Shown here: positions 27,266 to 44,957 of the stretch, in pieces
Numbering within the stretch: the stretch's first letter is position 1
Layout: every line of letters starts with the position of its first letter
From: an uncultured Spirochaetales bacterium
GTDB taxonomy: Bacteria > Myxococcota_A > UBA9160 > JAFDET01
DNA: 64,000 nt
Assembly: GCA_964442285.1 (NCBI GenBank)
Contig: CAYTZH010000010.1
Span: 33,516-97,515, forward strand
Reading direction: 5' to 3'
The notes under the pieces: model-generated
The model's database searches: none
Seen by the model: the letters and a program-made list of their open reading frames with translations, nothing else
What the model was told of the DNA's origin: nothing
Made by a program: the position numbers and the translations under genes

Positions 27266-28504
27266 TCAGCGGCCCGCCAGCCCGGCGAGGAGGCCCGCGA
27301 AGCGGGTGCCGATCACGCGGCGGTCGAAGGCGCCCGCCACGAAGGCGCGGCCGCGGGCGCCGTCGCGGTCGGCCCGGGCGGGGTCGCGCAGGTAGGCGAG
27401 CATGGCGTCCGCCAGGGCGTCGGGATCGCCGGGCGTCACCACGGTTCCCCCCTCGGCCCGCTCCACCGTCTCCGCTCCCTCGCCGCCCGCCTGATACAGG
27501 ACCGGCCGGCCGCTGGCGAGGGACTCGTAGAGCTTCGACGGCACGGTGCTCGTGTCCTTGCGGGGGCGCAGGGTGACCAGCACGCCGGTGGCGCGACGCA
27601 GCAGCGAGAAGACCGCGGCCCGCGGCTGGCGCGGCACGAACACGACCCGATCGAGCGCCCGTCGCGCGACCTGCGCGCGCAAGTCCGCCTCGCGGGGCCC
27701 CTCGCCCACGAGGACGAGCTGGGTCGTGGCGTAGGCCTCGGGATCCTTCTCCCGCAGGCGTGCGAAGGCGTCCACGACGATGTCCAGGCCCTGGGGCGTG
27801 TTCAGGATGCCCGCGTAGGCGAAGTAGCGGCCGTCGGGCGCGAGCGGGGCGAAGTCCGCCGGCAGCGGCTGCTTCGACTCGGCGTCGAAGAGGGCCACGT
27901 CGACCCCGTTGGGGAGCACGTGGATCTTCTCTGGGGAGACGCCGATCTCCACCAGCCGCGCCTTCCAGCCCTCGGTGACGGCGCTGATGGCGTCGGCCGA
28001 GCGGTAGAGGGCGCGCGCGAGGGCCTCGAAGGCCCAGATCAGGACCGGGTTGGTGAGGCGACCGCTCTGCACGATGGCCTCGGGCCAGATGTCGCGCACG
28101 TCGAGCACCATGGGCACCCGGCGGGTCCACGCCGCCACCAGGCCCGGGATGCCCACGCTCGGCGGCGGCGTGGTGGCGACCACCACGTCCGGGCGCAGGC
28201 TCCGGTCGAAGAGCACCCGCAGGCAGGCCGAGAGCAGGAAGCTGGCGTAGGCCAGCGGGCGACCGCCGCGACCCGAACGTGTGTAGATCGGGCAGCGCTT
28301 CACGGTGACGCCGTCGCGGGTCTCGCTGAAGAAGCCCCGGCCGCGGTAGCCCTCGTGGATCGCACCGCCCGGGAAGTGGGGGAGGCCGGTCACCACCGTC
28401 ACGTCGTGGCCGTCGGCGATCCAGCGCTGGGCGAAGTCGTGGAAGCGTCCCGCCGGGGCGCCCATGTCGGGCGGGAAGTACTGCGAGACGACGAGGATCC
28501 TCAT
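27266..28504 (-). CDS. Glycosyltransferase family 4 (WcaI-like)
   Basis: Internal ATG at 28504 of ORF 27266..29977, in an ATGA overlap with the upstream stop. N-terminus MRILVVSQYFPPDMGAPAGRFHDFAQRW is typical of WcaI-type GT4. Also VPSKLYESLASGRPVL. Confidence 0.8.
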   Translation of the reverse strand: MRILVVSQYFPPDMGAPAGRFHDFAQRWIADGHDVTVVTGLPHFPGGAIHEGYRGRGFFSETRDGVTVKRCPIYTRSGRGGRPLAYASFLLSACLRVLFDRSLRPDVVVATTPPPSVGIPGLVAAWTRRVPMVLDVRDIWPEAIVQSGRLTNPVLIWAFEALARALYRSADAISAVTEGWKARLVEIGVSPEKIHVLPNGVDVALFDAESKQPLPADFAPLAPDGRYFAYAGILNTPQGLDIVVDAFARLREKDPEAYATTQLVLVGEGPREADLRAQVARRALDRVVFVPRQPRAAVFSLLRRATGVLVTLRPRKDTSTVPSKLYESLASGRPVLYQAGGEGAETVERAEGGTVVTPGDPDALADAMLAYLRDPARADRDGARGRAFVAGAFDRRVIGTRFAGLLAGLAGR

Positions 28505-29913
28505 TCGTCGACGAGCTCGGGAAGCTGCAGGGGCGCGCAGGGGAAGACCAGGGCGTCGGCCTCGGGAAGGCCGCGCCCGAGGGTCTCGACCAGCGCCGCC
28601 CAGTCGCGGAAGAGGTGCCCGCCGCGGTACTTGCGCCGGAAGCCCCAGTCCGGGAAGCGCTCGGACCAGACCAGGGTCCGGGCGTCGCCGGGCGACGGGG
28701 CGGGCGCGGCCACGTCGGGCGGCAGCCGGCCTTCGCCCGCGGCGAAGGCGGCGTAGGCCAGGTGGTTCATGTGGAAGTAGCAGGTGCGCGCCGCGAGCAC
28801 GGGCGTCGGCAGGGCCCGGGCCAGGCCCCGCAGCCAGGCGGACCAGGCGCGGGGCTCGCGGAGCCAGCCGGGCAGGTTGCGCAGCAGCCGGCGCGGGTCG
28901 ACGCCGCTGCCCATGCCCATGCCGTGGTAGAAGACCCCGTCGCTGGCGGCGTTCACCGCCACGGTCCAGGGCGCGTCGAACTTCTTCGCGATGGTGATGC
29001 TCTTGCCCATCTGGATCGGATCCGTGTCGAGGGGGAAGGCGTTCACGACCACCGCCTGCGCGCGGTCGGCCAGCGCCCGCGGCACGGGCGTGCGGCCGAT
29101 CTCCCGGGCGCGGCGGGCGGCGGCCCGATGGGCCTCCACCGGGTCGCCCGTCCAGAGGCCCGCCAGCTCGGCCCGACCGTTCATCACCGCGCACACCGCG
29201 GCATGCACGCCCACCTGGCGCGCGACGGCCTCGGACCAGGCGCGCCGGTCGAGGCGGCCCCCGGCCGCCTCGAGGCTGCCGACCTCCCGGGGCGGCAGGC
29301 TGCCGTGGAAGTGGGCGATGGTCAGGCGGCCCGCGACCCCGGGCACCACCATCTTGGCGCCGCCGCCGAAGCCGGTCTCGTTGTGGGGGATCACGCCGCC
29401 CACGACGATCCGCAGGTCCGCCTCGAGGAAGTGCCGGTTCAGGTAGACCGGGCCGCCCGCCACGTGTCCCACGAAGCGGACGTCGGGTCCCATGAAGTCG
29501 TGCATGACCACGGCGCCCGCCCGCTCCGCGGCCGGACCGAGCTTGCGCGCGGTCTCGTCGGCGGTCATGGGGCGGTGGGCGGCGGTGCCCACCAGGAGGG
29601 TGACGGCGTCCCCGCCGAGGCCGCCCGCGGCGAGGGCGTCCAGCAGCCGGGGCAGGAAGCGGTGCACGGGCGTCGGCCGGGTGAGGTCGTCCACGGCGAT
29701 CACCGCGCAGCGGCGCCCCCGGGCCAGCTCCGTCAGGGGCGGGCCGCCCACGGGTGCCGCGAACGCCCGCGCGATCGCCGCCTCGTCCGCGGCCGGGGCA
29801 TCCTCCGGGTCGAGCCGATGCAGCCGCCAGCCCGGCGGGAACGCGAGCTCCCGGTCGGGGAGATCGGTCCAGGCGCCGAACGGAAGGGCCACGCGCGGAG
29901 GCTCGGGGCTCAT
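28501..29913 (-). CDS. LarA-like (DUF2088, lactate-racemase N-terminal domain family) protein
   Basis: ORF 28501..29913. Motifs AVDDLTRPTP (the D-x-T-R-P motif), GTAAHRPMT, and GVIPHNETGFGGGAKMVVPG followed by TIAHFH. These correspond to the His/Lys/His positions I recall for the nickel-pincer-nucleotide site of LarA. Confidence 0.65.
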   Translation of the reverse strand: MSPEPPRVALPFGAWTDLPDRELAFPPGWRLHRLDPEDAPAADEAAIARAFAAPVGGPPLTELARGRRCAVIAVDDLTRPTPVHRFLPRLLDALAAGGLGGDAVTLLVGTAAHRPMTADETARKLGPAAERAGAVVMHDFMGPDVRFVGHVAGGPVYLNRHFLEADLRIVVGGVIPHNETGFGGGAKMVVPGVAGRLTIAHFHGSLPPREVGSLEAAGGRLDRRAWSEAVARQVGVHAAVCAVMNGRAELAGLWTGDPVEAHRAAARRAREIGRTPVPRALADRAQAVVVNAFPLDTDPIQMGKSITIAKKFDAPWTVAVNAASDGVFYHGMGMGSGVDPRRLLRNLPGWLREPRAWSAWLRGLARALPTPVLAARTCYFHMNHLAYAAFAAGEGRLPPDVAAPAPSPGDARTLVWSERFPDWGFRRKYRGGHLFRDWAALVETLGRGLPEADALVFPCAPLQLPELVDE

Positions 29914-31263: not shown

Positions 31264-32234
31264 GCGTCGGCAGCGATCCGATCCCGAACATGATGACCGT
31301 CGACGTGGAGGACTGGTTCCACATCCTCGACGCCGACGAGGCGCCGGACCGGGAGGGCTGGGCCGCGCTCGAGTCGCGGGTCGTCGCCAACACCGAGCGC
31401 CTGCTCGCGCTCTTCGCGGCGGCGGAGGTGCGCACCACCTGCTTCATCGTCGGCTGGGTGGCCTGGCGCTGCCCGGAGCTCGTGCGGCGGATCGCCGACG
31501 CCGGCCACGAGGTGGCCTCCCACAGCTTCTGGCACGAGATCCTTCACCGCCACGACCGCGCCTCCCTGGCCCGCGACCTCGAGCGCTCCCGGAAGCTGCT
31601 GCAGGACCTCTCCGGGCAGCCGGTGCGGGGCTTCCGCGCCCCCGGCGCCTCGGTCACGGCGGAGACGGCCTGGGCCTTCGACGTGCTGGTGGAGCAGGGC
31701 TTCGCCTACGACGCCTCGATCTGCCCCGGCGTGTCGAGCCACGGCGGCTTCCGCTCGCCCTTCCCGGGGCCCCACCGGGTGCGCTGCGAGGCCGGCGAGC
31801 TGGTGGAGATCCCGTCCTCCACCGCCGAGCTGGGCGGGCGCCGGATCCCCTACGCCGGCGGCGGCTACCTGCGCCTGTTCCCGTACCTGCTGATCCGGGG
31901 CGCCCTGCGTCGGGACAACCGCGCCGGTCGCCCCGCCAACGTGTACCTGCATCCGCGGGAGATCGATCCGGCGCAGCCGCGCATGGCGCTGCCCGCCAAG
32001 CGCCGCTTCAAGTACTACGTGGGCCTGCGCAGCACCGAGGAGAAGGTGCGGGCGCTGCTGCGCGACTTCCGCTGGACCTCGTGCGCGGACTGGATCGCGC
32101 GCTTCGGGCCGGCCGAGGGGACCGACGTCCTGGACGTGCGCGCGACCGCGGCGGAGCACCCGCCCGCGCCCGATCCGGCGCGCGTACCGCCCGCGCCCCC
32201 GCTCGAGGCCTACGCCGAGAGCGTGGCCTCGTAG
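31260..32234 (+). CDS. XrtA/PEP-CTERM-locus-type polysaccharide deacetylase (CE4/DUF3473-like)
   Basis: Part of ORF 29754..32234. The GTG at 31260 overlaps the ATP-grasp stop (GTGA); alternative ATGs at 31290 and 31293. Motifs MMTVDVEDWFH, VASHSFWHE (H-x-x-x-H) and VRGFRAPGAS. Confidence 0.8.
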   Translation: MSVGSDPIPNMMTVDVEDWFHILDADEAPDREGWAALESRVVANTERLLALFAAAEVRTTCFIVGWVAWRCPELVRRIADAGHEVASHSFWHEILHRHDRASLARDLERSRKLLQDLSGQPVRGFRAPGASVTAETAWAFDVLVEQGFAYDASICPGVSSHGGFRSPFPGPHRVRCEAGELVEIPSSTAELGGRRIPYAGGGYLRLFPYLLIRGALRRDNRAGRPANVYLHPREIDPAQPRMALPAKRRFKYYVGLRSTEEKVRALLRDFRWTSCADWIARFGPAEGTDVLDVRATAAEHPPAPDPARVPPAPPLEAYAESVAS

Positions 32235-34858
32235 ACGCCCGTCACCCCGTCCACCGCCTGCAGGGCCACCTCGCGCACCCGGCGGCGCACGCCGTCGGCG
32301 GCGAGCGCCGCCGGCACGTCGACGCTGGCCCGTCGGTAGGGGAGGGAGGAGCGCAGCCGCAGGGTGTCGCCCGCACGCTCGGCGGTGATGCCGCTCGCCG
32401 CGCCGTCGACGGCGTCCGCCGCCACCACCAGCTCCCAGGCCGCGTCCCGCGCGTCCACCCGGAAGCGCAGCGGGCCGGGCTCCACCGGCGAGCGCCGCGC
32501 CGGCCAGCGCTCGCCGTCGCGCTCGATCCAGGCCTCGCGGACCCGTCCGAAGAGCCAGGCCGGGGGCAGCACCGTCACCTCCCGGGGCTGCTCCGCCGAC
32601 ACCGGGATGTCGCGGCCCACCAGCCGCAGCACGTAGCGATAGGTCTCCTGCCCCGCGTCGGGCGCCGCCAGCTCCACCACCTCCTCGTCGCGCCAGGCCA
32701 GCAGCCGGGGCGTGTAGCGCTCGTACCAGGCGAGCACCGCGTCCCGGGTGCGGGAGAAGCGTACCTCCGGGTGGGCGCGGGCCACGTGGGCCAGGTGGTC
32801 GCGGATCGTGGCCCAGTCGCCGTAGCCCGCCTCGAGGGAGTCCCACTGCCGACCCATGCGCCAGTTAATGAACTTGTCGTGGGTCATGGCGCAGATCACG
32901 TGCACGCCGGGGAGCGCGCCGCCCTCCGGCGTGCGCAGGGCGTCGATCCGACCGTCGACGTAGCCGTTCAGCACGCCCACGTCCGAGAGGAAGTCGGCCT
33001 CGATGTTGAACTCGGCGCGGATCTCCAGGGCCCGCATGCGCTCGGGGCCGGCCGCCGGCTGGCGCGGATCGCCGTCGACCGGGTAGGTGGCCCGGGCCAT
33101 CGGCCGGTGGTAGAGCCGCGGCTTCGGCACGTCGCTGTCCGCCAGCAGCTCGAGCCGCTGGAGCAGGGCGAGGGAGCGCGCGCGCTCGGGGGCGTCCTCG
33201 CCGAAGTCGAAGGAGCCGGCGCGGAAGCAGGTGACCCGGAAGCGCGGGTCGCCCAGGCGCCCGAGGGCCTCGAGCGCGCCGATGCCGCGCCAGGTGGCCC
33301 AGGCGCGGGAGCCCTCCAGCGCGGCGTCGCCCAGGGCGGGGAAGGCGCGGCTCCAGAACCCGCGCTGGGGCAGCGGCGTCTCGAGGAACGCCGCGGGCGT
33401 GGTCACCCGGTCCGACTCGGGATCGAAGCCGTGGCAGAAGACGTCGGTGCCCGGGTCGTGGAAGGCGTGGCAGTGCAGGCCCAGGTCGTTGCCGTTCGCC
33501 ACCGCCTCGATCAGGTGCTCGGCGCTGGCGTCGGCGACCGCCTGCCAGGTGTCGCCGCGGGACTGGCGCGCGGCCCAGGGCACCAGGTGGAGGGAGCCCA
33601 CGTCCACCATGTGGGTCCAGGCCGCGCCCTGCTCGTTGGCCACCTGCTCGGCGAAGCGCGACTTGTCCACCAGGGTCTTGCGCGCCGCCTCGGCGTCGGT
33701 GGCCTCGCGCTCGTCGTAGAGCTCGTGGTCCTCGGTGATCGTGTAGTGGATCTCGCCAGGCTCCCGGTCGGGAACGCCGAACGCCAGCGACAGCCGCTCC
33801 ACCCGGGCTCCCGAGGCCAGCGCCAGCTCCAGGCGCCACGGCCGACCGCCGGCCACGGCGTCGGGCCGGAGAGCGGTCACGCGCACCGTGAGCGACGTGT
33901 TGCCCTCCGCCACCGGAATCCGCCCCCGCGGCTCGCAGAGGAGTCCGTGGCCGCAGGGCTCGAGCACGTGGAGCCCGGCCGCACCCCCGGAGACCTGGAC
34001 CCCGACCTCGATCTCGACGGATTCGCCGACCTCGAGCGCGGCCGGGCGGGTGCCGGAGACCGACAGCCTCAGGTGGGCCACGTGCCCGCTCCCGGACAGG
34101 CGCTCCAGACCGACGATGGCCGCGTCGCACCCGGGGTCGAGGGCCAGGGCGCGGCCCCAGGCCTCCCGGGCGCGCTCCGGCGCCGCGTGCTCGCAGGCGT
34201 CGCCCAGCTCGGACCAGACGGCGACGTCCAGGGGGTCCAGGTCCGCGGCGCGCTCCAGGGCGCCCTCCGCCAGGCTCGCGACGCCGGAGGCCAGGGCGCG
34301 GCGGCCGAGGGCGAGCCAGAGGTCCGCGCGACCGCCGTCGAGCCGGCCGGCCTCGTCGAGCAGGCGCTCCTCCCGCGCGCGGTCGCCGGCCCGGGCCGCC
34401 GCGGCGGCCAGGTGGAGCAGGCCGTCCACCCGGCTGCCCAGGGGCGCGTCCGACTTGCGCAGCGCGGCCTCGGCGTCGCCGAAGCGCCCCTCGGCCAGGA
34501 GCTTCTCGAGGTCCTCGGAGGGGCCGCCGCCCTGGCGACGCGAGCGGCGCCAGGCCAGGGTGGTGCGCAGGGCGCCGAGCACCGAGGTCTCGAGGGTGTT
34601 GTGGGCGAGGTGCTCGAAGGCGTCCCGGTGCCGGGCCGCCGCGCCCGCATCGCCCCGGGCCTCGGCGCGGGCGGCGAGCAGCCGGTGGGCGTCCCGCGCC
34701 CCGGGGTGGATGCGCAAGGCGGCCCAGGCGGCCCCGGGCAGCCAGGACCCCACCCGCACGAGGCCCGCCGCGGTCAGCTCCCGCGCCGCCCGCCGCAGCA
34801 CGAAGGCGTCGTGGGCCGTGACCTGGCGCAGCAGCAGCGCGAGCTCGCGTCGCTTCAC
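32210..34858 (-). CDS. 882-aa multidomain hypothetical protein: N-terminal TPR-like region, middle beta-sandwich-like region, C-terminal divergent deacetylase-like region
   Basis: Part of ORF 32210..35383. The GTG at 34858 overlaps the upstream stop (GTGA). There is no signal peptide or TM segment. TPR-like helices occupy roughly residues 1-300. C-terminal motifs IHYTITEDHELY, LGLHCHAFHD and CFRAGSFDFG parallel TVDVEDWF, SHSFWHE and FRAPGAS of the neighbouring deacetylase. The fold assignment is an inference. Confidence 0.55.
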   Translation of the reverse strand: MKRRELALLLRQVTAHDAFVLRRAARELTAAGLVRVGSWLPGAAWAALRIHPGARDAHRLLAARAEARGDAGAAARHRDAFEHLAHNTLETSVLGALRTTLAWRRSRRQGGGPSEDLEKLLAEGRFGDAEAALRKSDAPLGSRVDGLLHLAAAAARAGDRAREERLLDEAGRLDGGRADLWLALGRRALASGVASLAEGALERAADLDPLDVAVWSELGDACEHAAPERAREAWGRALALDPGCDAAIVGLERLSGSGHVAHLRLSVSGTRPAALEVGESVEIEVGVQVSGGAAGLHVLEPCGHGLLCEPRGRIPVAEGNTSLTVRVTALRPDAVAGGRPWRLELALASGARVERLSLAFGVPDREPGEIHYTITEDHELYDEREATDAEAARKTLVDKSRFAEQVANEQGAAWTHMVDVGSLHLVPWAARQSRGDTWQAVADASAEHLIEAVANGNDLGLHCHAFHDPGTDVFCHGFDPESDRVTTPAAFLETPLPQRGFWSRAFPALGDAALEGSRAWATWRGIGALEALGRLGDPRFRVTCFRAGSFDFGEDAPERARSLALLQRLELLADSDVPKPRLYHRPMARATYPVDGDPRQPAAGPERMRALEIRAEFNIEADFLSDVGVLNGYVDGRIDALRTPEGGALPGVHVICAMTHDKFINWRMGRQWDSLEAGYGDWATIRDHLAHVARAHPEVRFSRTRDAVLAWYERYTPRLLAWRDEEVVELAAPDAGQETYRYVLRLVGRDIPVSAEQPREVTVLPPAWLFGRVREAWIERDGERWPARRSPVEPGPLRFRVDARDAAWELVVAADAVDGAASGITAERAGDTLRLRSSLPYRRASVDVPAALAADGVRRRVREVALQAVDGVTGVYEATLSA

Positions 34859-36258
34859 GCCAGGCGGCCCGTCTCGAGCTGCGACACCACGGCGCGGAAC
34901 TTCCCGTTGGGAAGCCGCGGGATGGCGTCGACCACCTCGTAGGCGATCTCGATCTCGTGACCCAGGCGGCTGCGGAACTCGGCGTCGAGCTCCTTGCGGG
35001 CCGCGTCGTCGAAGCCCGCCCGCGGGACCAGGCGCACCACGATCCGGTCCCGGCTGGACTGCACGATCTGCGCCTCCTTCACCTCGAGGGCGTCCTTGAA
35101 GACGTGGTCCATCCGCCCGATGCGGCGGCCATCGGGGGTCACCACGAAGTCCTCGATGCGCCCGTCGATCCGCTCCAGGAGCGGGCGCGCCCGACCACAG
35201 GGACAGCTCGCCCGCTTGAGCAGCGTGGCCACGTCGCCGGTGCGGTAGCGCAGCAGCGGCATGGCGCGATTGGCGAAGCCGGTGGAGATCACCTCGCCGC
35301 GCACCCAGTCCTCGGTCTCCTCGTGGGGATCGATCTCCACCACGCCGAACTCGGTGTCGACGTGGTAGTGGCCGGCCGGGCACTGCAGCACCGATACGCT
35401 GAACTCGGAGTTGCCGTAGCGGTCGGCCACGACGGCGCCGGTCGCCTGGGCGATCCGATCGCGATGGAAGTCCAGCAGCGTCTCCGACGACGGGAACACG
35501 GCGCGGGGCGCCGCGGCGCCGAGGTCGATCCCGCGGTCGAGCAGGTGCTGGGAGATCAGTCCCAGCGAGGAAGGATAGCCCTGCCAGAAGCGGTAGCCGG
35601 GTCGCTGCAGCTCCCGGGCGTAGGCGTCCAGGAACTCGGCGCGCATGTGGTAGAGCGAGAAGATCATCCGGGAGCGCGCCCGGTCGTAGCGCCAGAACGG
35701 CGGGCGGGCCTGGGTGAAGGGGACCGCCATCTGGCCGCCGAAGGCGGCGAAGCGGTCGCCGAGCTTCACGCCGTACCAGCCCCGCTGGCGCCAGATCACG
35801 CCGTACTCCCAGCCCAGCGCCTCCCGGGTGTGGAAGAGCCGCAGGGCCGTGCCGGTGGTGCCGCTCGAGTGCCCGCCGATGATCTGGCGCTCCGGGATGC
35901 CCTCGCTCTTCAGCGCCTCGGCGTTCTCCCGCACCGTCTCCTTGGGGAGGAAGGGGACCTTGGCCAGATCGTCGCTGCCGCGGATCGAGGCCGGATCGAT
36001 GCCCTCCCGCGTGAACAGGGTGCGGTAGTAGGGCACCGTGCGAGCCGCCCAGAGGATCATCTCCCGCAGCCGCCGGTCCTGGTCCTCGCGGATCTGCTCC
36101 GGGGAGTTGAAGTCGGTCCGCTCGAGCTCGTCGAGGATGCGGCGGAACGGTGCGCCGAAGCGGTGCCGGTAGCTGCGCCAGCCCCAGGCCGCCACCGCCA
36201 GCTCCTGGGCGGCGATGGGAAGCCGGTCGTACAGGCGGTGCATGCGGCTTCGCGCCAT
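34855..36258 (-). CDS. CapK / F390-synthetase / phenylacetate-CoA-ligase-like adenylate-forming enzyme (paralog 2, intact P-loop)
   Basis: ORF 34855..36258. P-loop GGHSSGTTGTAL, motif LLRYRTGDVATL, and C-terminal LPNGKFRAV. Confidence 0.75.
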   Translation of the reverse strand: MARSRMHRLYDRLPIAAQELAVAAWGWRSYRHRFGAPFRRILDELERTDFNSPEQIREDQDRRLREMILWAARTVPYYRTLFTREGIDPASIRGSDDLAKVPFLPKETVRENAEALKSEGIPERQIIGGHSSGTTGTALRLFHTREALGWEYGVIWRQRGWYGVKLGDRFAAFGGQMAVPFTQARPPFWRYDRARSRMIFSLYHMRAEFLDAYARELQRPGYRFWQGYPSSLGLISQHLLDRGIDLGAAAPRAVFPSSETLLDFHRDRIAQATGAVVADRYGNSEFSVSVLQCPAGHYHVDTEFGVVEIDPHEETEDWVRGEVISTGFANRAMPLLRYRTGDVATLLKRASCPCGRARPLLERIDGRIEDFVVTPDGRRIGRMDHVFKDALEVKEAQIVQSSRDRIVVRLVPRAGFDDAARKELDAEFRSRLGHEIEIAYEVVDAIPRLPNGKFRAVVSQLETGRLA

Positions 36259-36262
36259 GGCA

Positions 36263-38410
36263 TCAGACCGCGGAGGGCGCTCCGCTGGCGAGCGAGGCCA
36301 GGGCGGCCAGGCAGGCCCGGGTGGTGGCGGCCGACTGCTCGAAGGGGATCGGCATCGGGCCGCCCTCGCGCACGGCCGCGAGGAAGCGCCGCATCTCCTC
36401 GGCGAAGCCCTTGTCCTGGTTGGCCGAGCGGTCCTTCTGGATGCGACCCCCGCGGACCCGCTCGAGGGTGCGGAAGTCGTCGAGCACCGCCAGCCGCCCT
36501 TCGCCGAAGACCTCGAGCCGCTCCTTCGGGTAGCGGCTGTCGCCGAGCGCCGTGTAGACCACGCTGCCCAGCGAGCCGTCGGCGAAGCGCAGGCTGATCG
36601 CGACGTTGTCGTCGCCGCGATAGCGGTCGTCGCCCGCGATGCTCTCGGCGTGCACGCGGACCGGCGGCGCGCCCGCCAGGAACTGCAGCAGGTCGACGAA
36701 GTGGCAGACCTCGCCGCGGATGCGGCCCCCGCCCTCGGCGGGGTCGTGGATCCAGTGGTCGCCGGGGATGAAGCCCGCGTTGATGCGGTACTGCATCACC
36801 AGGGGATGGGTGCGGTCGGCGAAGTGCTCCGCGAGCTTCGCCACCAGGGGCGCGAAGCGGCGGTTGAAGCCCACCATCACGTCGCCGCGCGCGCCGGCGC
36901 GGGCGGCTTCGATGGCCGCCAGCTCCTCCTCGCACAGGCAGAGGGGCTTCTCGGTGAAGACGTGCTTGCCCGCTTCGAGGCCGCGCCGGACCAGGGGCGC
37001 GTGGAGGTCGTGGCGGGTGAGCACGAACACCGCGTCCACGTCCGGATGCGCCACCACCTCCTCGGTCTCGGCGGTGGCGAGCCGGAAGCCGTGCTGCTCG
37101 CCGATGCGGCGGGCGGTCATGCCGCCGGCGGAGGCGATGGCGACGTTCTCCGTCCCGCCCGCCTCCTGGAGGGCGGGCAGCAGCACCGACTGCCCGAAGC
37201 TCCCGGCGCCCACCAGGCCCACCCGCACGCGGTCCCGCCCCAGGGGCTCGGCGGACAGCGCCACCGACGACGCCGGCGGCCTGGGGGCCTCGTCGTCGGC
37301 GTCGTACTCGAGCACGACCCCCAGGTACGGCTCGCGGCCCCCGGAGATCAGGCCGTAGGCGTCGAGGGCCGCGTCGATCCCGAAGCGGTGCGTGACCAGC
37401 CGCCGCGTGTCCAGACGGCCGTCCGCCGCCAGGTCCAGGAAGGCCTCGAGGTTGCGCTGCTCGGTCCAGCGCACGTGGCCCAGGGGGTAGTCGACGCCGC
37501 GCTCCTCGTAGTCCGGGTCGTAGCGTCCGGGGCCGTAGGACATGGACATCCGCAGGTCGAGCTCCTTGCGGTAGTAGGTCGAGCGGGGGACCTGCATCCC
37601 CACCAGGCCGACCACCACCACCCGGCCGCGCAGGCGGGAGATCTCGCCGGCGACCTCCAGCGGCCCGGCGTCCGGCGTCGACGCGGCCACGATCACCGCG
37701 TCCATGCCCTGGCCCAGGGAGAACTGCGCGGCGGCGGTCTCGAGGTCGTCGGAGACGGCGCGGTGGGCCCCGAGCTCCTCGGCCAGCTTGGCCCGCTCGC
37801 CGTTCGGATCGAAGCCCAGCACCCGGCAGCCGCCCGCCCGCAGCAGCTGCACCGTGAGCTGTCCGATGAGCCCCAGGCCGATCACCGCCACCCGCTCGCC
37901 CAGGGTGGGCTCGGCCTGCCGGACTCCTTGGAGCGCGATGGCGCCCACGGTGGCGAACGCGGCGCTCTCCATGTCCACGCCGTCGGGAATCCGCACGACC
38001 AGGTTGCGCGGGACGTAGTTGTAGTCGGCGTGGTTGGCGTAGCCGGCGCCGGCACAGGCGACGCGGTCGCCCACCTGCAGCTCGGAGACCTCCTCGCCCA
38101 CGCCGACCACGATCCCGGCGCTCGAGTAGCCCAGGGGGATCGGCGTCTCGAGCTTGGTGCGCACCTTCTGGAGCGTGTTCATCACGCCCTGCTTGCGGGC
38201 CGTGGTGATCACCTTGCGCACCAGGTCCGGGCGGGCCCGGGCCTTGGCCACCAGGCTCTTGCGGGCCAGGTCCACCACCATCTTCTCGGTGCCGGCCGAC
38301 ACCAGGGAACGCACCGTGCGCACGAGCACGCCCTGGGGCCGCAGCGCGGGCGGCGGGACGTCCTCCACCTTCATCTCGCCGGTCCGGTACGACTGGATCA
38401 GCTGGCGCAT
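36263..38410 (-). CDS. Bi-domain oxidoreductase: N-terminal zinc-type alcohol dehydrogenase (MDR) fused to a C-terminal Gfo/Idh/MocA domain
   Basis: Internal ATG at 38410 of ORF 36263..38866. The MDR part has GYSSAGIVVGVGEEVSELQVGDRVA and VAVIGLGLIGQL. The Gfo/Idh/MocA part has VRVGLVGAGSFGQSVLLPAL and GKHVFTEKPLC. Confidence 0.8.
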   Translation of the reverse strand: MRQLIQSYRTGEMKVEDVPPPALRPQGVLVRTVRSLVSAGTEKMVVDLARKSLVAKARARPDLVRKVITTARKQGVMNTLQKVRTKLETPIPLGYSSAGIVVGVGEEVSELQVGDRVACAGAGYANHADYNYVPRNLVVRIPDGVDMESAAFATVGAIALQGVRQAEPTLGERVAVIGLGLIGQLTVQLLRAGGCRVLGFDPNGERAKLAEELGAHRAVSDDLETAAAQFSLGQGMDAVIVAASTPDAGPLEVAGEISRLRGRVVVVGLVGMQVPRSTYYRKELDLRMSMSYGPGRYDPDYEERGVDYPLGHVRWTEQRNLEAFLDLAADGRLDTRRLVTHRFGIDAALDAYGLISGGREPYLGVVLEYDADDEAPRPPASSVALSAEPLGRDRVRVGLVGAGSFGQSVLLPALQEAGGTENVAIASAGGMTARRIGEQHGFRLATAETEEVVAHPDVDAVFVLTRHDLHAPLVRRGLEAGKHVFTEKPLCLCEEELAAIEAARAGARGDVMVGFNRRFAPLVAKLAEHFADRTHPLVMQYRINAGFIPGDHWIHDPAEGGGRIRGEVCHFVDLLQFLAGAPPVRVHAESIAGDDRYRGDDNVAISLRFADGSLGSVVYTALGDSRYPKERLEVFGEGRLAVLDDFRTLERVRGGRIQKDRSANQDKGFAEEMRRFLAAVREGGPMPIPFEQSAATTRACLAALASLASGAPSAV

Positions 38411-39888
38411 GCCCGGGCTTCCGGCTCCCGCTCGATGTGACCCTTCCAGCCGGGGTGGGCCTCGAAGTGGAGGTTCAGGTCGATGTCGGAGAAGCGCATC
38501 CGGCGCTCTCCCGCCTCGTCGATCCAACACACCTCGAGGCTCTCGGGCTCGCCCCGGAAGGCGGTGATCCGCAGGCCGCCGGCGAGCTCCTCCAGGGCCC
38601 GGCGCAGCAGCGGGATCCGCCGCCACTCGAAGCCCATGATCCAGGTGAGCACCACGTCGACGCAGCCCCCGTCCTCGCCCGCGGCCAGCAGGCCCAGGGG
38701 GCGCGGGTCCGGCCCCATGGGCCCCTGGCCCTCGCCGGCCACGATGCCGTCGTAGACGTTGAGCACGCGGCGGGTGGACGCCTGCCCGAGGCGGCCCTCC
38801 TTGTCGGCGTGATAGAAGACCTTGTTGAGATCCAGGCAGGTGCGCCAGATGGTGTCGTTGCCCCACCAGTTGCCGGAGCGGGTCCGCTGGCCCAGGCCGC
38901 TGGCCTCCTCGGCGGCCCGGATCCGGCGGAACACCGCGCCCCCGATGCCGCGCTTGAGCAGCCGGCGGGCGAACTCGCCGCCGAAGGCGCGGAGCCGGGC
39001 GTAGGCGTCCGGCCGGGGGAACTCGTCGCCGCCCCCGGACTGGAAGCCTGCCCGGTAGTGGGGCAGCCAGTTCTTGTCGCCATTGATGCCGATGAGGTTC
39101 TTCATCGACAGGGTCACGCCAGCCTTCTTGTGGGTCTTGATCTTGGGCACGTTGATGGCCAGGTCGGCCGACAGCACCGTGCGCGCCACCAGGTACTCGT
39201 TCACGCCCCGGCTGTGGTGCTGGATCGTGACCTCCTCGTCGTAGTCGGCGCCCCGCAGCAGCCGCAGGTGCCGCTCGGACATGCTCTGGAACTCACTGGC
39301 AGTCCCGAGGTCGGCGGCCACGTAGCCCTTGGGATCGCCCGGCAGCTTGCGCTTCTCCGTCTGCACGCCGTGGGTGTGGCGGCCGAACTCGACCCGCAGG
39401 TCCCGGAAGGGCACCTCGAGGCCGATCTCCGTGTACCAGCCCAGGAACTCCGCGAGGCGGAGCTTCTCGAGCAGCACCTCGATCTCGCAGTCGTACTGGG
39501 GCGCGTCGGCGACCACCACCGAGCCGCCGGGGCCGACGGCCTTCCAGGCGTAGTCGATCAGCGGCCGCAGCACGGCGGGATGCGTGACCACCGCCTCGAC
39601 GGAATCGCCGTGGGTCTCGTTGAAGTGGCGCACGAAGTTCGGCTTCAGCACCACGCTCCCACCGGGCGTCACCAGGTCCGAGAGGGGCGACCAGTCGGGC
39701 GTGCCGAAGCGCGCGGCGTCGTAGCCCAGGCCCCGGAGCATCCGGCGGACCCCCGCGTAGATGCGGTTGCGGGGCTCGGTGTCCCCGGGCAGGAAGCCCA
39801 GCTCCGGATAGCGCTCCGGCGGGTGGTAGGGCAGGGGAAGGTCGTAGTCCTTCTGGCCCGTGAAGTGGATGACCGGCAGCGGCAGCAT
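38398..39888 (-). CDS. DUF362 domain protein
   Basis: ORF 38398..39888, with a perfect SD AAGGAGG before the ATG. Motifs SVVLKPNFV, INVPKIKTHKKAGVTLSMKNLIG and YDGIVAGEGQGP are typical of DUF362. Confidence 0.7.
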   Translation of the reverse strand: MLPLPVIHFTGQKDYDLPLPYHPPERYPELGFLPGDTEPRNRIYAGVRRMLRGLGYDAARFGTPDWSPLSDLVTPGGSVVLKPNFVRHFNETHGDSVEAVVTHPAVLRPLIDYAWKAVGPGGSVVVADAPQYDCEIEVLLEKLRLAEFLGWYTEIGLEVPFRDLRVEFGRHTHGVQTEKRKLPGDPKGYVAADLGTASEFQSMSERHLRLLRGADYDEEVTIQHHSRGVNEYLVARTVLSADLAINVPKIKTHKKAGVTLSMKNLIGINGDKNWLPHYRAGFQSGGGDEFPRPDAYARLRAFGGEFARRLLKRGIGGAVFRRIRAAEEASGLGQRTRSGNWWGNDTIWRTCLDLNKVFYHADKEGRLGQASTRRVLNVYDGIVAGEGQGPMGPDPRPLGLLAAGEDGGCVDVVLTWIMGFEWRRIPLLRRALEELAGGLRITAFRGEPESLEVCWIDEAGERRMRFSDIDLNLHFEAHPGWKGHIEREPEARACAS

Positions 39889-39902
39889 GTTCCTCCTTCT
39901 CG

Positions 39903-40565
39903 CTATTCCGGCACGAACGCGGACAGCCGCGCCACGACCCGCGGCGCGAACTCCTCGAAGGCGCGGTCCGCGGCCGCCTCGCCCCCGCTTCCCAGCGGGA
40001 TCGTGAACCGCACGAGGGCGCCGTCGGTCCTCCCCCGGGTCGCGCGATCCCAGAACAGGTCCACGATCTTGCGCCAGTCCTCGGCGATCACGCGGCCGCG
40101 GGAATGGTACCAGTAGTAGACCGCCTGCCGCGCGGGCCCCTTGGCGATCACGAAGCGCTTGATCCGCGCCGGTCGCTCGGGCATCCCCGGCATGTCGACC
40201 TCGAGCTGGCGGGCCCCCACGATGTCCCAGCCCGAGCCCGGCAGGCAGTGCTTCGGCGGATGGATGGCGTTCTCGCCGGCCCCGCCGCCCTCCCGGCGGA
40301 CCTGGGTGGCGTGGTAGCCGACGTAGAGATTCACCAGGGCGCGCGGCTCGTTGCGCACGAAGTTGCAGAGCAGGTAGTCGGTCACGCCGAGGTTGCGGAC
40401 CACCGGCGCCTCCAGCGCCTCGCGGCCCGCGCAGCGCCAGGCCCCCAGGGCGTCCGGGAAGGCCTCGAAGCGCTGGCGCTCCGGCACCACCTCCCCGGTG
40501 GCGAGGCCGTGGTAGACGTAGAGGTTCAGGCCCAGGAAGGCCGCGGCCACCAGGTAGCGGGTCAC
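39903..40565 (-). CDS. epsI: EpsI-family exosortase-associated protein
   Basis: ORF 39903..40610. I prefer the GTG at 40565, which overlaps the xrtA stop (GTGA) and gives MTRYLVAAAFLGLNLYVY; the ATG at 40610 is the alternative. The signature AIHPPKHCLPGSGW matches EpsI (H-x-P-x-x-C-L-P-G-x-G-W). Confidence 0.85.
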   Translation of the reverse strand: MTRYLVAAAFLGLNLYVYHGLATGEVVPERQRFEAFPDALGAWRCAGREALEAPVVRNLGVTDYLLCNFVRNEPRALVNLYVGYHATQVRREGGGAGENAIHPPKHCLPGSGWDIVGARQLEVDMPGMPERPARIKRFVIAKGPARQAVYYWYHSRGRVIAEDWRKIVDLFWDRATRGRTDGALVRFTIPLGSGGEAAADRAFEEFAPRVVARLSAFVPE

Positions 40566-41473
40566 GGCCGGGCCTCCGCGGGGCGCCCCGGGCCGCCCGG
40601 GCGTGGCCACAGGCGCGCCAGCAGTGCGGCCTCGGCCAGGAGCAGGGCGAAGGCCAGCCCGAAGGTGAACAGCCCCTCGGTCTCGTGGATGGCGCCCTCC
40701 GCCATCTCCTGGCCGAAGCGGTGGGTCAGGATCCCCGTCAGCGCCACCCGCAGGGCATTGACCAGGATCGCGATCGGGAGCGTGGAGAGCACGATGACGC
40801 CGCGCTCCAGCCAGGACTTCCGGAAGAAGTAGGCGAACACGACGCCCAGGGTGAGCAGCGCCATGAGCGAGCGGAGACCGCTGCAGGCGTCCTGGACGAA
40901 GAGCGTGACCTCGGCGAGGTGGATGATGTTGCCCTCGCGCAGGGCGGGGATGCCCAGCTCGTGGAGCAGCCGCACCGCCATGTCGGCGGCGAACAGCTGC
41001 AGCGGGAACGAGACGACGTTCACCAGGGACTGGGGCAGCGGGATCATCAGGAACAGGAAGAGCAGCGGGAAGGCCAGGACCCGGTAGGCGTCCCGGCCGA
41101 GGAGCAGCAGCACCAGGCCGTTGCAGGTGAGCACGAACCCCGTCCGCATGCTCATCTGCTCGACGCCCAGCCGGCCGACGGCCAGGGCCAGGACCCCCGC
41201 GGCCAGCACCGGCACGCCCCAGACGCTGGCCCGGAACGCGGTCCGCGCCAGGTCGTGGCGCCGCTCCCAGGCGAAGTAGAGCGCCAGGGGCGCCACCACG
41301 AAGCCGTGGGAGTAGCTGTCGTCGGTGGACCAGTGGCGCGCCATGTGACGGAGCACGGGTGCGTACACCGCCGTGGCCCCGACGAGGGCGACGGCGGTGG
41401 CGGCGAGCGCCGTTCGCGGAGACGCGCCCGGGCGGGCCGGGGGCCCGCCCGGGCTGTACGACTCCGTCGTCAA
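40562..41473 (-). CDS. xrtA: Exosortase (XrtA/EpsH type)
   Basis: ORF 40562..41473, TTG start. Motifs DDSYSHGF, LMIPLP, QDACSGLRS (catalytic Cys), VNALRVA (Arg) and AIHETEG (His). It is followed directly by epsI, and prsT lies in the same locus. Confidence 0.85.
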   Translation of the reverse strand: MTTESYSPGGPPARPGASPRTALAATAVALVGATAVYAPVLRHMARHWSTDDSYSHGFVVAPLALYFAWERRHDLARTAFRASVWGVPVLAAGVLALAVGRLGVEQMSMRTGFVLTCNGLVLLLLGRDAYRVLAFPLLFLFLMIPLPQSLVNVVSFPLQLFAADMAVRLLHELGIPALREGNIIHLAEVTLFVQDACSGLRSLMALLTLGVVFAYFFRKSWLERGVIVLSTLPIAILVNALRVALTGILTHRFGQEMAEGAIHETEGLFTFGLAFALLLAEAALLARLWPRPGGPGRPAEARP

Positions 41474-41492
41474 TGCCCCGGGTCCCGCCCCG

Positions 41493-41668
41493 CTAGAAGA
41501 GGGCGTAGATGAACGGCGCGACTGCAGAGCCCTCGGTCAGGACGATGAGCACCGAGAGCAGCAGCATCACCACCACGATCGGGCCGAGCCACCACTTCTT
41601 GCGGACCTTCATGAAGGTCCAGAGCTCGCCGAAGATCCCCAGCCGGCTTCCACCCGCCTTCGCCATGT
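41493..41668 (-). CDS. SxtK/DUF5989-like small membrane protein; N-terminus out of frame (G6 run) or expressed as a 39-aa form by ATGA-coupled reinitiation
   Basis: Below the ORF-track size cutoff. The frame ending at TAG 41495..41493 reads (G)IFGELWTFMKVRKKWWLGPIVVVMLLLSVLIVLTEGSAVAPFIYALF. The only in-frame ATG is at 41612 (39 aa). A well-placed ATG at 41668 (RBS GGAGAG) is in another frame and stops after 19 codons at TGA 41611..41609. A C6 run (G6 on the coding strand) lies at 41637..41642. Confidence 0.55.
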
Positions 41669-41676
41669 CTCTCTCC

Positions 41677-43416
41677 TCAGTCGAGCTCGTAGAGCTCTCG
41701 CCAGTCCACGTCTTCGCGCAGCTCCGGCTGGTCGCGCTTCCGCAGCACCTGGTTGCCCAGCACCAGCACGTCCATCTCGGTGCGCATGAAGCAGAGATAG
41801 GCGTCCCGGGGCGTGCACACGATCGGCTCGCCGCGGACGTTGAACGAGGTGTTGATCAGCACCGGGCAGCCCGTGCGCTGGTCGAAGGCCTGGAGCAGGT
41901 CGTAGAACTCGGCGTGGCTCTCCCGGGTGACCGTCTGCAGGCGGGCCGAGCCGTCCACGTGGGTCACGGCCGGCACCTCGCGGCCCTCGCGCACCTGGCA
42001 GACCAGCAGCATGTAGGGGCTCTCGCGGTCGATGTCGAACCACTCCCCCGCCTTCTCCGCCAGACAGGCGGGCGCGAAGGGCCGGAAGCTCTCGCGGTAC
42101 TTGATCTTGAGGTTGACCCGCTTCCAGTTCTCCTCGTCCCGGGCGTCGGCCAGGATGCTGCGGCTGCCCAGGGAGCGCGGACCCCACTCCATGCGTCCCT
42201 GGAACCAGCCCACGACGGCCCGCTCCTCGTCGATGAGGCGGGCCGTCTCCCGGATCATCTCGTCCCGGGGCAGCGTCTGGTAGACCGCCCCCGCGCCGTC
42301 GAGGAAGCTGCGGATGGCGTCGTCGTCGAAGGCGGGGCCCCAGTAGGCGTGATCCATGCGGCAGCGGCGCGGGTTACCCAGCACGCAGTTGTCGATGAAC
42401 AGGGCCACGCCGAGGGCGCTGCCCGCGTCGCCCGCGGCCGGCTGGATCCAGAGCTCCTCGAAGGGCCCCTCGCGGATGATCCGGCCGTTGGCGACGCAGT
42501 TGAGGGCCACGCCGCCCGCCATGCAGAGGTTCTTCATGCCGGTGCGGGCGTGGAGGTCCCGCACCATGCGCAGCACCACCTCCTCGGTGACCGCCTGCAC
42601 GCTGGCCGCCATGTCCCAGTGGAACTGCTCCATGGGCGACTCGGGCTCGCGCCGGGGCTGCCCGAAGAGCTCGGCGAAGCGCTTGTTGGTCATGGTCAGG
42701 CCGTAGTCGTAGGCGAAGTACTTCATGTCGAGCTTGAAGGAGCCGTCCTCGCGGATGTCGATCAGCTCCTTCTTGATCAGGTCGGCGTACTTCGGCGTGC
42801 CGTAGGGCGCGGCGCCCATGACCTTGTACTCGGCGCTGTTGACCTTGAAGCCCAGGTAGTAGGTGAAGGCGCTGTAGAGCAGACCCAGGCTGTGGGGGAA
42901 GCGGATCTCGTGCAGCAGCTCGAGCTGGTTGCCGCGACCGACGCCGAAGGTCGCCGTCGCCCACTCGCCCACGCCGTCGAGGGTGAGCACGGCCGCCTCC
43001 TCGAAGGGGGAGGGGAGGAAGGCCGCGGCGGCGTGACTCTGGTGGTGCTCCGCGAAGAGCACCTCGCCCGTGTAGCCGAGCTTGCTGGCGATCTGGTTCG
43101 GGACCCAGAGCTTCTCCTTCAGCCAGATCGGGATGGCCTTGGTGAACGACGGCAGGGAGCGCGGGAAGGTGGCGATGTACGTGGTGAGCATGCGCTCGAA
43201 CTTCACGAACGGCTTGTCGTAGAAGGCCACGTAGTCGACGTCGTCGATGTCGAGGCCGGCCTCCGCCAGGCAGTAGCGGGTGGCCTCCACCGGCAGCTCC
43301 GGGTCGTGGCGCCTGCGGGTGAAGCGCTCCTCGTGGGCCGCGGCGACCAGCTCGCCGTCGCGCAGCAGGGCGGCGGCGGCGTCGTGGTAGAAGCAGGAGA
43401 TGCCGAGGATGTTCAC
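41677..43416 (-). CDS. Carbamoyltransferase (NodU/CmcH/SxtI-like), paralog 3
   Basis: ORF 41677..43416, GTG start with RBS GGAGA. Sequence MNILGISCFYHDAAAALLRDGELVAAAHEERFTRRRHD, then HHQSHAAAAFLPSPF and TLDGVGEW, plus INTSFNVRGEPIVCTPRDA. Confidence 0.9.
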   Translation of the reverse strand: MNILGISCFYHDAAAALLRDGELVAAAHEERFTRRRHDPELPVEATRYCLAEAGLDIDDVDYVAFYDKPFVKFERMLTTYIATFPRSLPSFTKAIPIWLKEKLWVPNQIASKLGYTGEVLFAEHHQSHAAAAFLPSPFEEAAVLTLDGVGEWATATFGVGRGNQLELLHEIRFPHSLGLLYSAFTYYLGFKVNSAEYKVMGAAPYGTPKYADLIKKELIDIREDGSFKLDMKYFAYDYGLTMTNKRFAELFGQPRREPESPMEQFHWDMAASVQAVTEEVVLRMVRDLHARTGMKNLCMAGGVALNCVANGRIIREGPFEELWIQPAAGDAGSALGVALFIDNCVLGNPRRCRMDHAYWGPAFDDDAIRSFLDGAGAVYQTLPRDEMIRETARLIDEERAVVGWFQGRMEWGPRSLGSRSILADARDEENWKRVNLKIKYRESFRPFAPACLAEKAGEWFDIDRESPYMLLVCQVREGREVPAVTHVDGSARLQTVTRESHAEFYDLLQAFDQRTGCPVLINTSFNVRGEPIVCTPRDAYLCFMRTEMDVLVLGNQVLRKRDQPELREDVDWRELYELD

Positions 43417-43465
43417 GTGGGGGTCTCCGTTCGCGGCGCCGGACGTCCGGACGCGCGGGCCGTTC

Positions 43466-43744
43466 TCAGGACTGCGTCTTCGCGCGCTCCAGCTCGGCGG
43501 GCGCCGCCTCCGCCTCGTTCCAGGCCGTATCCGGCTCGCGCAGGCCGCGCTTGGCGAGCAGGTCCTGCCGGCCGATGTTGACGATCGTGGCCGCGATCCC
43601 GATCGCGGAGGCGTAGAAGAGCGACAGGATCACCTGGGTCTGCACCTCGCCGAAGTGGGCGACGATGCGCATCCAGCCGTGTCCGAAGGGCCGCAGCGGT
43701 GCGAGCACACGCCGCCAGCCGACTGTCTCCACGGCCGCGCTCAT
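43466..43744 (-). CDS. 92-aa membrane protein, SxtJ-like (C-terminal-half resemblance)
   Basis: C-terminal part of shadow ORF 43466..44980. The ATG at 43744 overlaps the wecB stop (ATGA). The sequence MSAAVETVGWRRVLAPLRPFGHGWMRIVAHFGEVQTQVILSLFYASAIGIAATIVNIGRQDLLAKRG resembles the conserved W..lg..n..iiL.l.y..v..P......r..g.D.L region I recall for SxtJ-family proteins. Confidence 0.5.
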   Translation of the reverse strand: MSAAVETVGWRRVLAPLRPFGHGWMRIVAHFGEVQTQVILSLFYASAIGIAATIVNIGRQDLLAKRGLREPDTAWNEAEAAPAELERAKTQS

Positions 43745-44886: not shown

Positions 44887-44957
44887 GATCTCCTGCTCTT
44901 CTCCCCGCTTCTCCCCGCGGGTGGTGGGTTGCGGGCGGTGCCTCGGGCTTCGTGAAA

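Follow-up and report, generated by a model that had tools for sequence, protein, structure and literature searches.

Immediately downstream of the genes for an exosortase and its EpsI-family partner, in a 64,000-nucleotide stretch of DNA from an uncultured Spirochaetales bacterium (GTDB lineage Myxococcota_A; contig CAYTZH010000010.1, positions 33,516 to 97,515; the whole stretch is called the window here), lies a block of four coupled minus-strand genes that runs from 39888 to 32210. The block encodes a DUF362 protein, a bi-domain oxidoreductase, a CapK-type ligase and an 882-amino-acid (aa) protein, designated P882. The best explanation of its conservation is that the DUF362, oxidoreductase and CapK genes constitute a portable polysaccharide-tailoring cassette, to which P882 is a lineage-specific add-on. 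We propose, with what we judge to be an even chance of being right, that the encoded proteins form a module for cytoplasmic tailoring, by which the repeat unit of an exopolysaccharide (EPS) receives an amide-linked substituent.

Gene structure of the block

The window is about 72% GC, and genes were placed in it by frame-specific GC analysis and translation. The genes of the block, and the two directly upstream of them, are:

40562..41473 (-), exosortase (PF09721, 254 bits; TIGR03109, the XrtA model, 215.4 against a cutoff of 208)
39903..40610 (-), EpsI-family protein, directly upstream of the block (PF11984, 157 bits; TIGR02914, 96.3 against 42.8)
38398..39888 (-), DUF362 protein, 496 aa, first gene after EpsI (PF04015, 91 bits)
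36263..38410 (-), bi-domain oxidoreductase, 715 aa, with an N-terminal medium-chain/alcohol dehydrogenase (MDR/ADH)-like and a C-terminal Gfo/Idh/MocA domain (Pfam)
34855..36258 (-), CapK/PaaK-type adenylate-forming ligase, 467 aa (PaaK structure 4r1l, E=5e-21)
32210..34858 (-), P882, 882-aa multidomain protein (AlphaFold2 model, pLDDT 84, pTM 0.85)

All four genes of the block have a GC content at third codon positions of 0.95-0.97 and a coding-type GC pattern. The EpsI stop codon (TAG, 39905-39903) is followed by a 14-nt spacer, cgAGAAGGAGGaac, which contains AAGGAGG, and then by the ATG of the DUF362 gene at 39888. The end of the DUF362 gene and the beginning of the oxidoreductase gene share 13 nt (ATGCGCCAGCTGA; oxidoreductase ATG at 38410), 4 nt separate the oxidoreductase TGA from the CapK ATG at 36258, and a GTGA overlap joins the CapK stop to the P882 start at 34858. 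A first-pass annotation of this DNA had described the same four tightly coupled genes at these coordinates and with these junctions; frame analysis and direct reading of each gap and overlap bore it out. The identical 13-nt overlap of DUF362 and oxidoreductase occurs in the orthologous loci L003, L087, L091 and L092, and a 4-nt overlap into the P882 gene is also found in L004, L089, L091 and L092. Because the overlaps recur in orthologous loci, the coupling is conserved and is not a chance feature of one genome.

The minus strand was scanned from 31500 to 45500 and yielded no terminator-like site, and a scan for sigma-70 promoters gave no match within the block. The block is best explained as the distal part of one EPS operon, in the order wecB, a small open reading frame (ORF), carbamoyltransferase, DUF5989, exosortase, EpsI, DUF362, oxidoreductase, CapK and P882, of which wecB is probably the first gene.

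Conservation of the cassette across genomes

A search with the DUF362 protein returned 2778 matches at E<=1e-10, many of them 63-79% identical, making it far commoner and more conserved than P882; its relatives are spread over 557 or more species-representative genomes from many phyla. By tblastn, the window proteins were compared with the 80 best DUF362 loci among these relatives. Fifty-one of the loci are well flanked, each flank measuring 4 kb or more. Among these, CapK (counted within 5 kb and on the same strand) is present in 40 and the oxidoreductase in 35; DUF362 has one partner or more in 50 loci and both in 25. The P882 gene was found in 0 of the 80 loci. Because P882 is absent from all of them and is known from only 19 sequence clusters, the conserved unit is a trio with an add-on and not a quartet. 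The supposition in the first-pass annotation that the genes work together thus stands for the trio, on the strength of synteny and fusions, and falls for the quartet.

In Myxococcota the typical gene order is xrt, epsI, (glycosyltransferase family 4, GT4), CapK, DUF362, (AsnB), oxidoreductase. In Planctomycetota, Acidobacteriota, Chloroflexota and other phyla, DUF362 is accompanied by CapK and sometimes by the oxidoreductase, with no exosortase beside them. L085 likewise has no exosortase beside the cassette; its order is CapK, DUF362, oxidoreductase, and the trio is accompanied by genes for a heparinase II/III-like protein and a UDP-sugar dehydrogenase, amid ordinary glycosyltransferase and sugar-nucleotide genes. 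The glycosyltransferase that travels with the cassette is encoded in the window as well and adjoins P882, CapK or EpsI in many loci:

27266..28504 (-), GT4a, WcaI-like GT4 glycosyltransferase (NF007640, 174 bits)

An AsnB-type amidotransferase is found in 25 of the 80 loci. Eight loci have AsnB as a gene of its own, inserted between DUF362 and the oxidoreductase, and in three unrelated metagenome-assembled genomes (MAGs) of very different GC content an amidotransferase of this type, glutamine-dependent and asparagine-synthase-like, is fused in frame to CapK, giving proteins of about 1140 aa (L062, about 11.4-14.6 kb; L071, 11473-14904; L083, 11443-14871). In L092, a single ORF of 1208 aa (6378-10004) encodes the oxidoreductase and CapK in one chain, with about 40 aa of linker between them; it is the one instance of this fusion, and an assembly or stop-loss artefact is possible. 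The cross-phylum synteny, the conserved 13-nt overlap and the gene fusions argue that DUF362, the oxidoreductase and CapK work together, and the insertion of AsnB into the cassette, or its fusion to it, suggests that they have a carboxylate substrate in common. In the surveyed loci the trio has neither an aminotransferase nor an acyl carrier as a conserved neighbour.

The CapK ligase and its relation to VpsH

The adenylation motifs of the ANL superfamily can all be read intact in the CapK translation (SSGTTG, YGNSE, YRTGD, GRIED and PNGK, the last with the C-terminal Lys), in agreement with the earlier description of a CapK-like ligase with an intact P-loop. PaaK enzymes are its best solved-structure relatives and have the same core motifs. 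CapK differs from them in its context, which is polysaccharide synthesis and not aromatic catabolism, and in its scores against the PaaK equivalog models, which lie far under the cutoffs (TIGR02155, 72.7 against 646 bits; NF041878, 90 against 700); identification as PaaK proper was rejected on these scores. NCBIfam matches to the DVU1553, PaaK and F390 models were likewise all sub-threshold. The CapK_C domain (PF27533) gave no match to the window protein in the local Pfam scan; because precomputed annotation places CapK_C on orthologues 59-66% identical to it in L003, L004 and L087, we infer that the local Pfam copy lacks this model. CapK_C is also annotated on the CapK genes of L085, L086, L089 and L091.

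In Vibrio polysaccharide (VPS) synthesis, genetic evidence published in 2026 shows that the addition of glycine to L-GulNAcA on a bactoprenyl-linked disaccharide depends on the CapK/PaaK-like protein VpsH, in a pathway that starts from a wecB/wecC-type ManNAcA module (PMC13463779). VpsH performs a tailoring step on which chain assembly does not depend, and ATP-dependent activation of the carboxylate followed by amide formation has been proposed for it. The window resembles this system in having a PaaK/CapK-type ligase in a Wzx/Wzy-type EPS locus with a wecB-type epimerase and a sugar dehydrogenase. The VPS cluster of V. cholerae differs in lacking DUF362, the bi-domain oxidoreductase, P882 and an exosortase.

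Uronic acids are also amidated in O-antigen and XrtA loci, by AsnB-type amidotransferases such as WbpS, WbtH and TIGR03108. These enzymes share the neighbourhood of the cassette and are inserted in it or fused to it in many loci, and they differ from CapK in mechanism class, CapK belonging to the ANL superfamily and not to the Ntn-amidotransferase/PP-loop type; no AsnB-type gene occurs in the window.

The DUF362 protein and the bi-domain oxidoreductase

The AlphaFold2 model of the DUF362 protein has a pLDDT of 85. When it was compared with the PDB by Foldseek, every significant match was to a LarA-family nickel-pincer enzyme (probability up to 1.0, TM 0.23-0.31), and LarA-family members made up all of the top 16. 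DUF362 and Lar_N share a Pfam clan, CL0471 (PMC11770544). The modelled protein has a LarA-type fold, and its only match in the Pfam scan was to DUF362, not to the Lar_N sequence family. The window also contains a LarA-superfamily homologue:

28501..29913 (-), LarA-superfamily homologue (NCBIfam LarA/LarAH, 118-168 bits, all below cutoffs, the best 168 against 500)

In the one profile alignment (hhalign) of DUF362 with this homologue, the invariant residues H253 and K263 fall opposite residues that we interpret as its catalytic His and its cofactor-tethering Lys; the alignment lacks significance (1.3% probability) and leaves the third, Ni-binding His unaligned. In L003 and L090 the homologue comes immediately after P882, and Lar_N is found in its orthologues. 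In the window it sits in the EPS locus beside GT4 and keeps, as judged by eye, the LarA-like motifs DDLTR, AAHR, PH...GGGAK and AHFH.

To our knowledge, no activity is known for any DUF362 protein. Literature searches on DUF362, on CapK/F390 synthetase in polysaccharide clusters, on heparinase/Gfo/AsnB sets and on exosortase with phenylacetate returned only a note of DUF362 as a LarA outgroup and the VpsH paper; apparent mentions of DUF362 in the TmAT paper proved to be of DUF3623.

Both domains of the oxidoreductase score above their Pfam cutoffs (ADH_zinc_N, 58.2 against 31.8; GFO_IDH_MocA, 83.5 against 24; GFO_IDH_MocA_C3, 50 against 27 bits), and ADH_N matches at 29 bits. Two GxGxxG motifs and an EKP motif are readable in its translation. 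Direct reading of the MDR half shows SAGTE and GYS in place of the Cys and GHE of Zn-ADH, so that the usual zinc ligands are missing. The Gfo/Idh/MocA half matches inositol 2-dehydrogenase (7e-32) and an archaeal UDP-GlcNAc 3-dehydrogenase (7e-17).

P882 contains a conserved domain of catalytic type

P882 had been described as an 882-aa tetratricopeptide repeat (TPR) protein. In the model, residues 1-255 are helical and TPR-like, residues 262-361 form a beta-sandwich, residues from about 369 to 715 form an alternating alpha/beta domain of catalytic type, and residues 720-881 form further beta-sandwiches. The TPR-like part is located at about aa 115-255, with TPR matches at aa 143-252 only; it matches designed TPR proteins (E=2e-21) and TPR structures in Foldseek, and all Pfam TPR matches are below cutoff. 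The repeats of the earlier description are therefore real, and yet about 30% of the protein is TPR and about 70% is not; P882 as a plain TPR protein was rejected, its main feature being the conserved, enzyme-like domain. Structure prediction and Foldseek, which the first-pass annotation had recommended, were run for DUF362, with the LarA-type fold as the outcome, and for P882, for which the matches were dominated by TPR. Identity with PrsT was also rejected (TIGR02917, 17.8 bits against a cutoff of 312). The full-length Foldseek matches outside the TPR were to GH66 dextranase and GH2 glucuronidase, and a glycosidase assignment was not adopted because none of these matches exceeded a TM of 0.16.

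The whole protein has 19 matching clusters among 5.8 billion, all of about 870-900 aa, of which the two with a source name are both from Myxococcota MAGs. The catalytic-type domain is rare, with 155 representatives among 1.84 billion proteins. It has no Pfam or NCBIfam model: P882 gave no Pfam match to the domain at E<=10 and 55 diverse relatives gave none, Polysacc_deac included, and a profile search against PDB sequences gave nothing at E<=10. T375, D377, E379, H462, H464, R546, G548 and H660 are invariant throughout the family, and W414 and H416 nearly so. The first three of these residues belong to a short motif:

33745..33759 (-), T-E-D-H-E motif of P882, aa 375-379 (T, D and E invariant across the domain family, alignments A1 and A8)

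Next to the block, on the opposite strand, is a deacetylase of the XrtA system, which contains a NodB domain of carbohydrate esterase family 4 (CE4) and is paired with an ATP-grasp ligase:

31266-32234, approximately (+), XrtA-system polysaccharide deacetylase, convergent to the block (TIGR03006, 298 against a cutoff of 276)
30052-31263 (+), ATP-grasp ligase (weak PRK12767 matches)

A global hhalign alignment of the P882 domain with the XrtA-type CE4 family extends over 277 columns (score 19.7, P=9e-4). T-E-D-H-E is aligned with TVDVE, NodB motif 1 of the deacetylase, and all five NodB motifs are in register: TxDxE, (H/N)(D/E)xxxH, FRAxG, DS and xH. Control alignments with unrelated families, with a reversed profile and with 20 column shuffles scored at most 9.3. 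The domain is probably a very divergent NodB-like domain. Both P882 and the deacetylase adjoin a carboxylate-activating ligase; P882 differs in having in addition the TPR domain and three beta-sandwiches, and the similarity of the two is weak and is not significant in local mode.

The full quartet follows xrt-epsI in the window, L003, L091 and L092, and L004 has the block without the oxidoreductase. L090 encodes DUF362, P882, LarA and GT4 without CapK, and L089 encodes CapK, P882 and GT4. In L001, which has no exosortase, an amidase gene overlaps P882, and in L088 glycosyltransferase genes surround a distant P882 relative, with CapK and a deacetylase/ATP-grasp pair close by. From the gene contexts in L001, L003, L004 and L088-L092, P882 keeps company with amide-bond enzymes and GT4.

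Among 55 distant members of the P882 family (alignment A5), four carry a 4HBT thioesterase domain and others carry NPCBM_assoc, Laminin_G_3 or imelysin domains; a TPR is recognisable in 16. Sulfotransferase genes come after the P882/GT4 genes in L090 (four, 15322-21684) and L091 (one, 15364-16227), and related polymers may therefore be sulfated.

A proposed pathway and its alternatives

We infer the following substrate, amide chemistry and order of steps. The DUF362, oxidoreductase and CapK genes move from one polysaccharide locus to another in the company of a WcaI-like GT4. CapK would adenylate a carboxylate, most likely the C6 carboxyl of a hexosaminuronic acid that derives from UDP-ManNAc(A) or UDP-GalNAcA and is already on the lipid-linked repeat unit, and would then couple an amine to the activated carboxyl, producing an amide-decorated sugar acid, as VpsH does with glycine. 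The DUF362 protein, with its LarA-type fold, and the two-domain NAD(P) oxidoreductase would carry out hydride-transfer steps (oxidation or epimerisation) on the sugar or on its small-molecule partner. P882 would be a lineage-specific accessory that combines a TPR scaffold with a very divergent NodB/CE4-like domain, the probable task of which is to take an acyl group off the same residue. An amidated uronic acid is favoured because of the VpsH precedent, the recurrent AsnB partner, the sugar-acid genes of the window (wecB and those for a UDP-sugar dehydrogenase and a TviC-like epimerase), and the heparinase and dehydrogenase genes of L085. The adenylate-and-ligate route to an amidated sugar acid that was suggested in the first-pass annotation agrees with the first three of these lines of evidence.

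Several points weigh against the proposal. The cassette is widespread and no member of it is known to have been characterised biochemically, and the 80 loci surveyed are best matches, which do not sample the 557 at random. Only 3 of the 80 loci have a UDP-sugar dehydrogenase gene less than 10 kb from DUF362, and the uronic-acid substrate is therefore not secured. The link between VpsH and CapK rests on shared family labels and not on sequence comparison. The likeness of DUF362 to LarA is at the level of the fold only, given the low probability of the His/Lys profile alignment, and larB, larC and larE were not seen among the window genes scanned. As to P882, local hhalign gives the CE4 alignment a probability of 0.2-1.6%, which is not significant, and the first metal histidine of NodB is Asn in the P882 clade.

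The main rival to amidation of a sugar acid is N-reacylation, which we consider possible and clearly the less probable of the two. CapK would here activate a free small carboxylic acid, for instance a 2-hydroxy acid, and transfer it to a sugar amine, giving an unusual N-acyl amino sugar; the acid would owe its stereochemistry or oxidation state to DUF362, the LarA homologue and the oxidoreductase, and the amine would be exposed by P882 or by the CE4 deacetylase. Such a scheme fits the habit of PaaK-family enzymes, which normally activate small free acids, and that of LarA-superfamily enzymes, which act on 2-hydroxy acids (PMC11770544). It would also give a place to the LarA homologue, both in the window and behind P882 in L003 and L090, to the NodB-like appearance of P882 in global hhalign and to the thioesterase domain of its four distant relatives, and it would make CapK-P882 a parallel of the neighbouring deacetylase/ATP-grasp pair. 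However, most CapK/DUF362 loci lack these partners (P882 and LarA 0/80 each, deacetylase 4/80), the one case in which genetics has placed a CapK-like enzyme in polysaccharide synthesis concerns the amidation of a uronic acid (PMC13463779), and the AsnB fusions point to amidation of a sugar carboxylate.

We regard it as unlikely that the trio instead acts ahead of glycosyl transfer and modifies a nucleotide sugar, for example through a 3- or 4-keto intermediate that afterwards undergoes epimerisation, with CapK forming a CoA thioester or being non-catalytic and no amide being made. The resemblance of the Gfo/Idh/MocA half to sugar and UDP-sugar dehydrogenases, the constancy of the GT4 partner and the position of wecB at the head of the operon would suit a nucleotide-sugar pathway; against it, CapK retains every adenylation motif, including the C-terminal Lys, the fusions are with an amidotransferase, and neither an aminotransferase nor an acyl carrier partner is conserved beside the trio.

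The exosortase context

The exosortase barely passes the XrtA cutoff, and the XrtD and XrtW models score it at about 231 yet fail their own cutoffs. Among the other XrtA markers, the deacetylase is above its cutoff (TIGR03006, 298 against 276.2 bits), and the chain-length determinant, ATPase, tyrosine kinase, exporter and PrsR families are below theirs (TIGR03007, 229/279; TIGR03015, 298/324.5; TIGR03018, 162/231; TIGR03027, 142/180; TIGR02915, 404/503). The exosortase, together with the divergent operon at 46710-52595 (+), looks like a divergent type of exosortase system.

The first-pass annotation had taken the direct attachment of the block to xrtA-epsI as a hint that its product matters for sorting and had recommended an analysis of synteny with xrtA. 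The trio proved to be conserved across phyla, often without an exosortase, and the hint was not upheld. Twenty-one of the 51 well-flanked DUF362 loci have an exosortase and EpsI no more than 6 kb away, and no exosortase is nearby in 29 of the 50 loci in which DUF362 has a partner. In three planctomycete-type loci the only exosortase-like match is weak (31-39% identity) and lies 5-8 kb downstream of DUF362; others have none. L087, from a 5.8-Mb Myxococcota chromosome and with a DUF362 protein 74% identical to that of the window, has the same EPS locus, sharing the divergent sigma-54 regulator, the exporter, wecB, the carbamoyltransferase and DUF5989; here DUF5989 runs directly into DUF362, oxidoreductase, CapK and GT4, without xrt-epsI.

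That the block's product is needed for exosortase function, for example by building the moiety that receives PEP-CTERM proteins, draws on its translational coupling directly 3' of xrt-epsI in the window, L003, L004, L090, L091 and L092 and on the 21 loci above, and is nonetheless very improbable, given the 29 partnered loci with no nearby exosortase, the planctomycete-type loci, the presence of the trio in L087, where the same locus has no xrt-epsI, and the ordinary glycosyltransferase setting of the trio in L085. A role of the block in PEP-CTERM sorting is thus poorly supported, and on the gene contexts compared here its position beside xrt-epsI is best explained as the reflection of an EPS locus that is shared among Myxococcota-like genomes.

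The surrounding EPS locus

The whole window is one large EPS locus. The genes that precede the exosortase in the operon are:

43741..44886 (-), wecB, non-hydrolysing UDP-GlcNAc 2-epimerase (TIGR00236, 332 bits against a cutoff of 210)
43466-43744 (-), 92-aa ORF without a Pfam match, flanking the carbamoyltransferase
41677..43416 (-), NodU/CmcH-type carbamoyltransferase (Carbam_trans_N, 335 bits; Carbam_trans_C, 243 bits)
41493..41666 (-), DUF5989 small membrane protein, 57 aa, partner of the carbamoyltransferase (PF19451, 87.8 bits)

The rest of the window contains export and chain-length genes, glycosyltransferases, a Wzx-like flippase, a Wzy-like polymerase, acyl-modifying enzymes and sugar-nucleotide genes, the last including gmd, the TviC-like epimerase and the UDP-sugar dehydrogenase.

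DUF5989 is in the same position in L003, L086 and L087, and small genes flank the carbamoyltransferase likewise in L003 and L087 (a 90-aa gene without a Pfam match and a 50-aa DUF5989 gene) and in L086 (73 and 60 aa). This arrangement resembles SxtI/J/K of saxitoxin clusters. About 75 nt upstream of the wecB start is a -24/-12 element of the sigma-54 type, TGGCACGCTTCTCGC (44961-44975, minus strand), with one mismatch, in the intergenic region shared with a divergent sigma-54-dependent response regulator (45264-46688). The window contains no second match of this kind, although chance alone would give about 2.3; sigma-54 may drive the whole operon.

The locus has a second carbamoyltransferase of the NodU/CmcH type, at 25087-26922 (+), in addition to that at 41677-43416 (-), and acyl-modifying enzymes of the GDSL/AlgX type at 8420-9589, 9615-11264, 19938-21131 and 24089-25090; the two carbamoyltransferases and the several acyl-modifying enzymes suggest a heavily decorated polymer. 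The pairing of the deacetylase with an ATP-grasp ligase is repeated in L003, L087, L088 and L089. In classical XrtA loci the partner of the deacetylase is a FemAB-like protein. Between the exporter and chain-length genes, a 600-aa protein (47315-49117, plus strand) has only a weak match to an autotransporter beta-domain, and unannotated genes of 498-544 aa occupy the equivalent position in L004, L086 and L087.

Implications

For exosortase biology the analysis provides a useful negative, in that genes joined to an xrt-epsI operon need not serve sorting. P882 adds a conserved, enzyme-like domain that lies outside the Pfam and NCBIfam models and has no sequence match in the PDB. A joint reading, in which DUF362 proteins of about 495 aa are hydride-shuttling epimerases or oxidoreductases specialised in polysaccharide tailoring, possibly with a nickel-pincer cofactor, and P882 founds a new, very divergent NodB-like enzyme family, is tentative and, we think, rather improbable. 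If it is true, P882 would act on cytoplasmic lipid-linked intermediates, coupling de-acylation to CapK-dependent re-acylation or amidation, and the unit of DUF362, CapK and the two-domain dehydrogenase would give the large DUF362 family its first function.

The cassette is present in hundreds of species of Myxococcota, Planctomycetota, Acidobacteriota, Chloroflexota and other phyla. Its fixed partners and fusions offer a testable handle on the function of DUF362, a large family related to nickel-pincer enzymes, and on the way in which non-sugar substituents are attached to bacterial exopolysaccharides, a process for which VpsH supplied the first genetic evidence in 2026.

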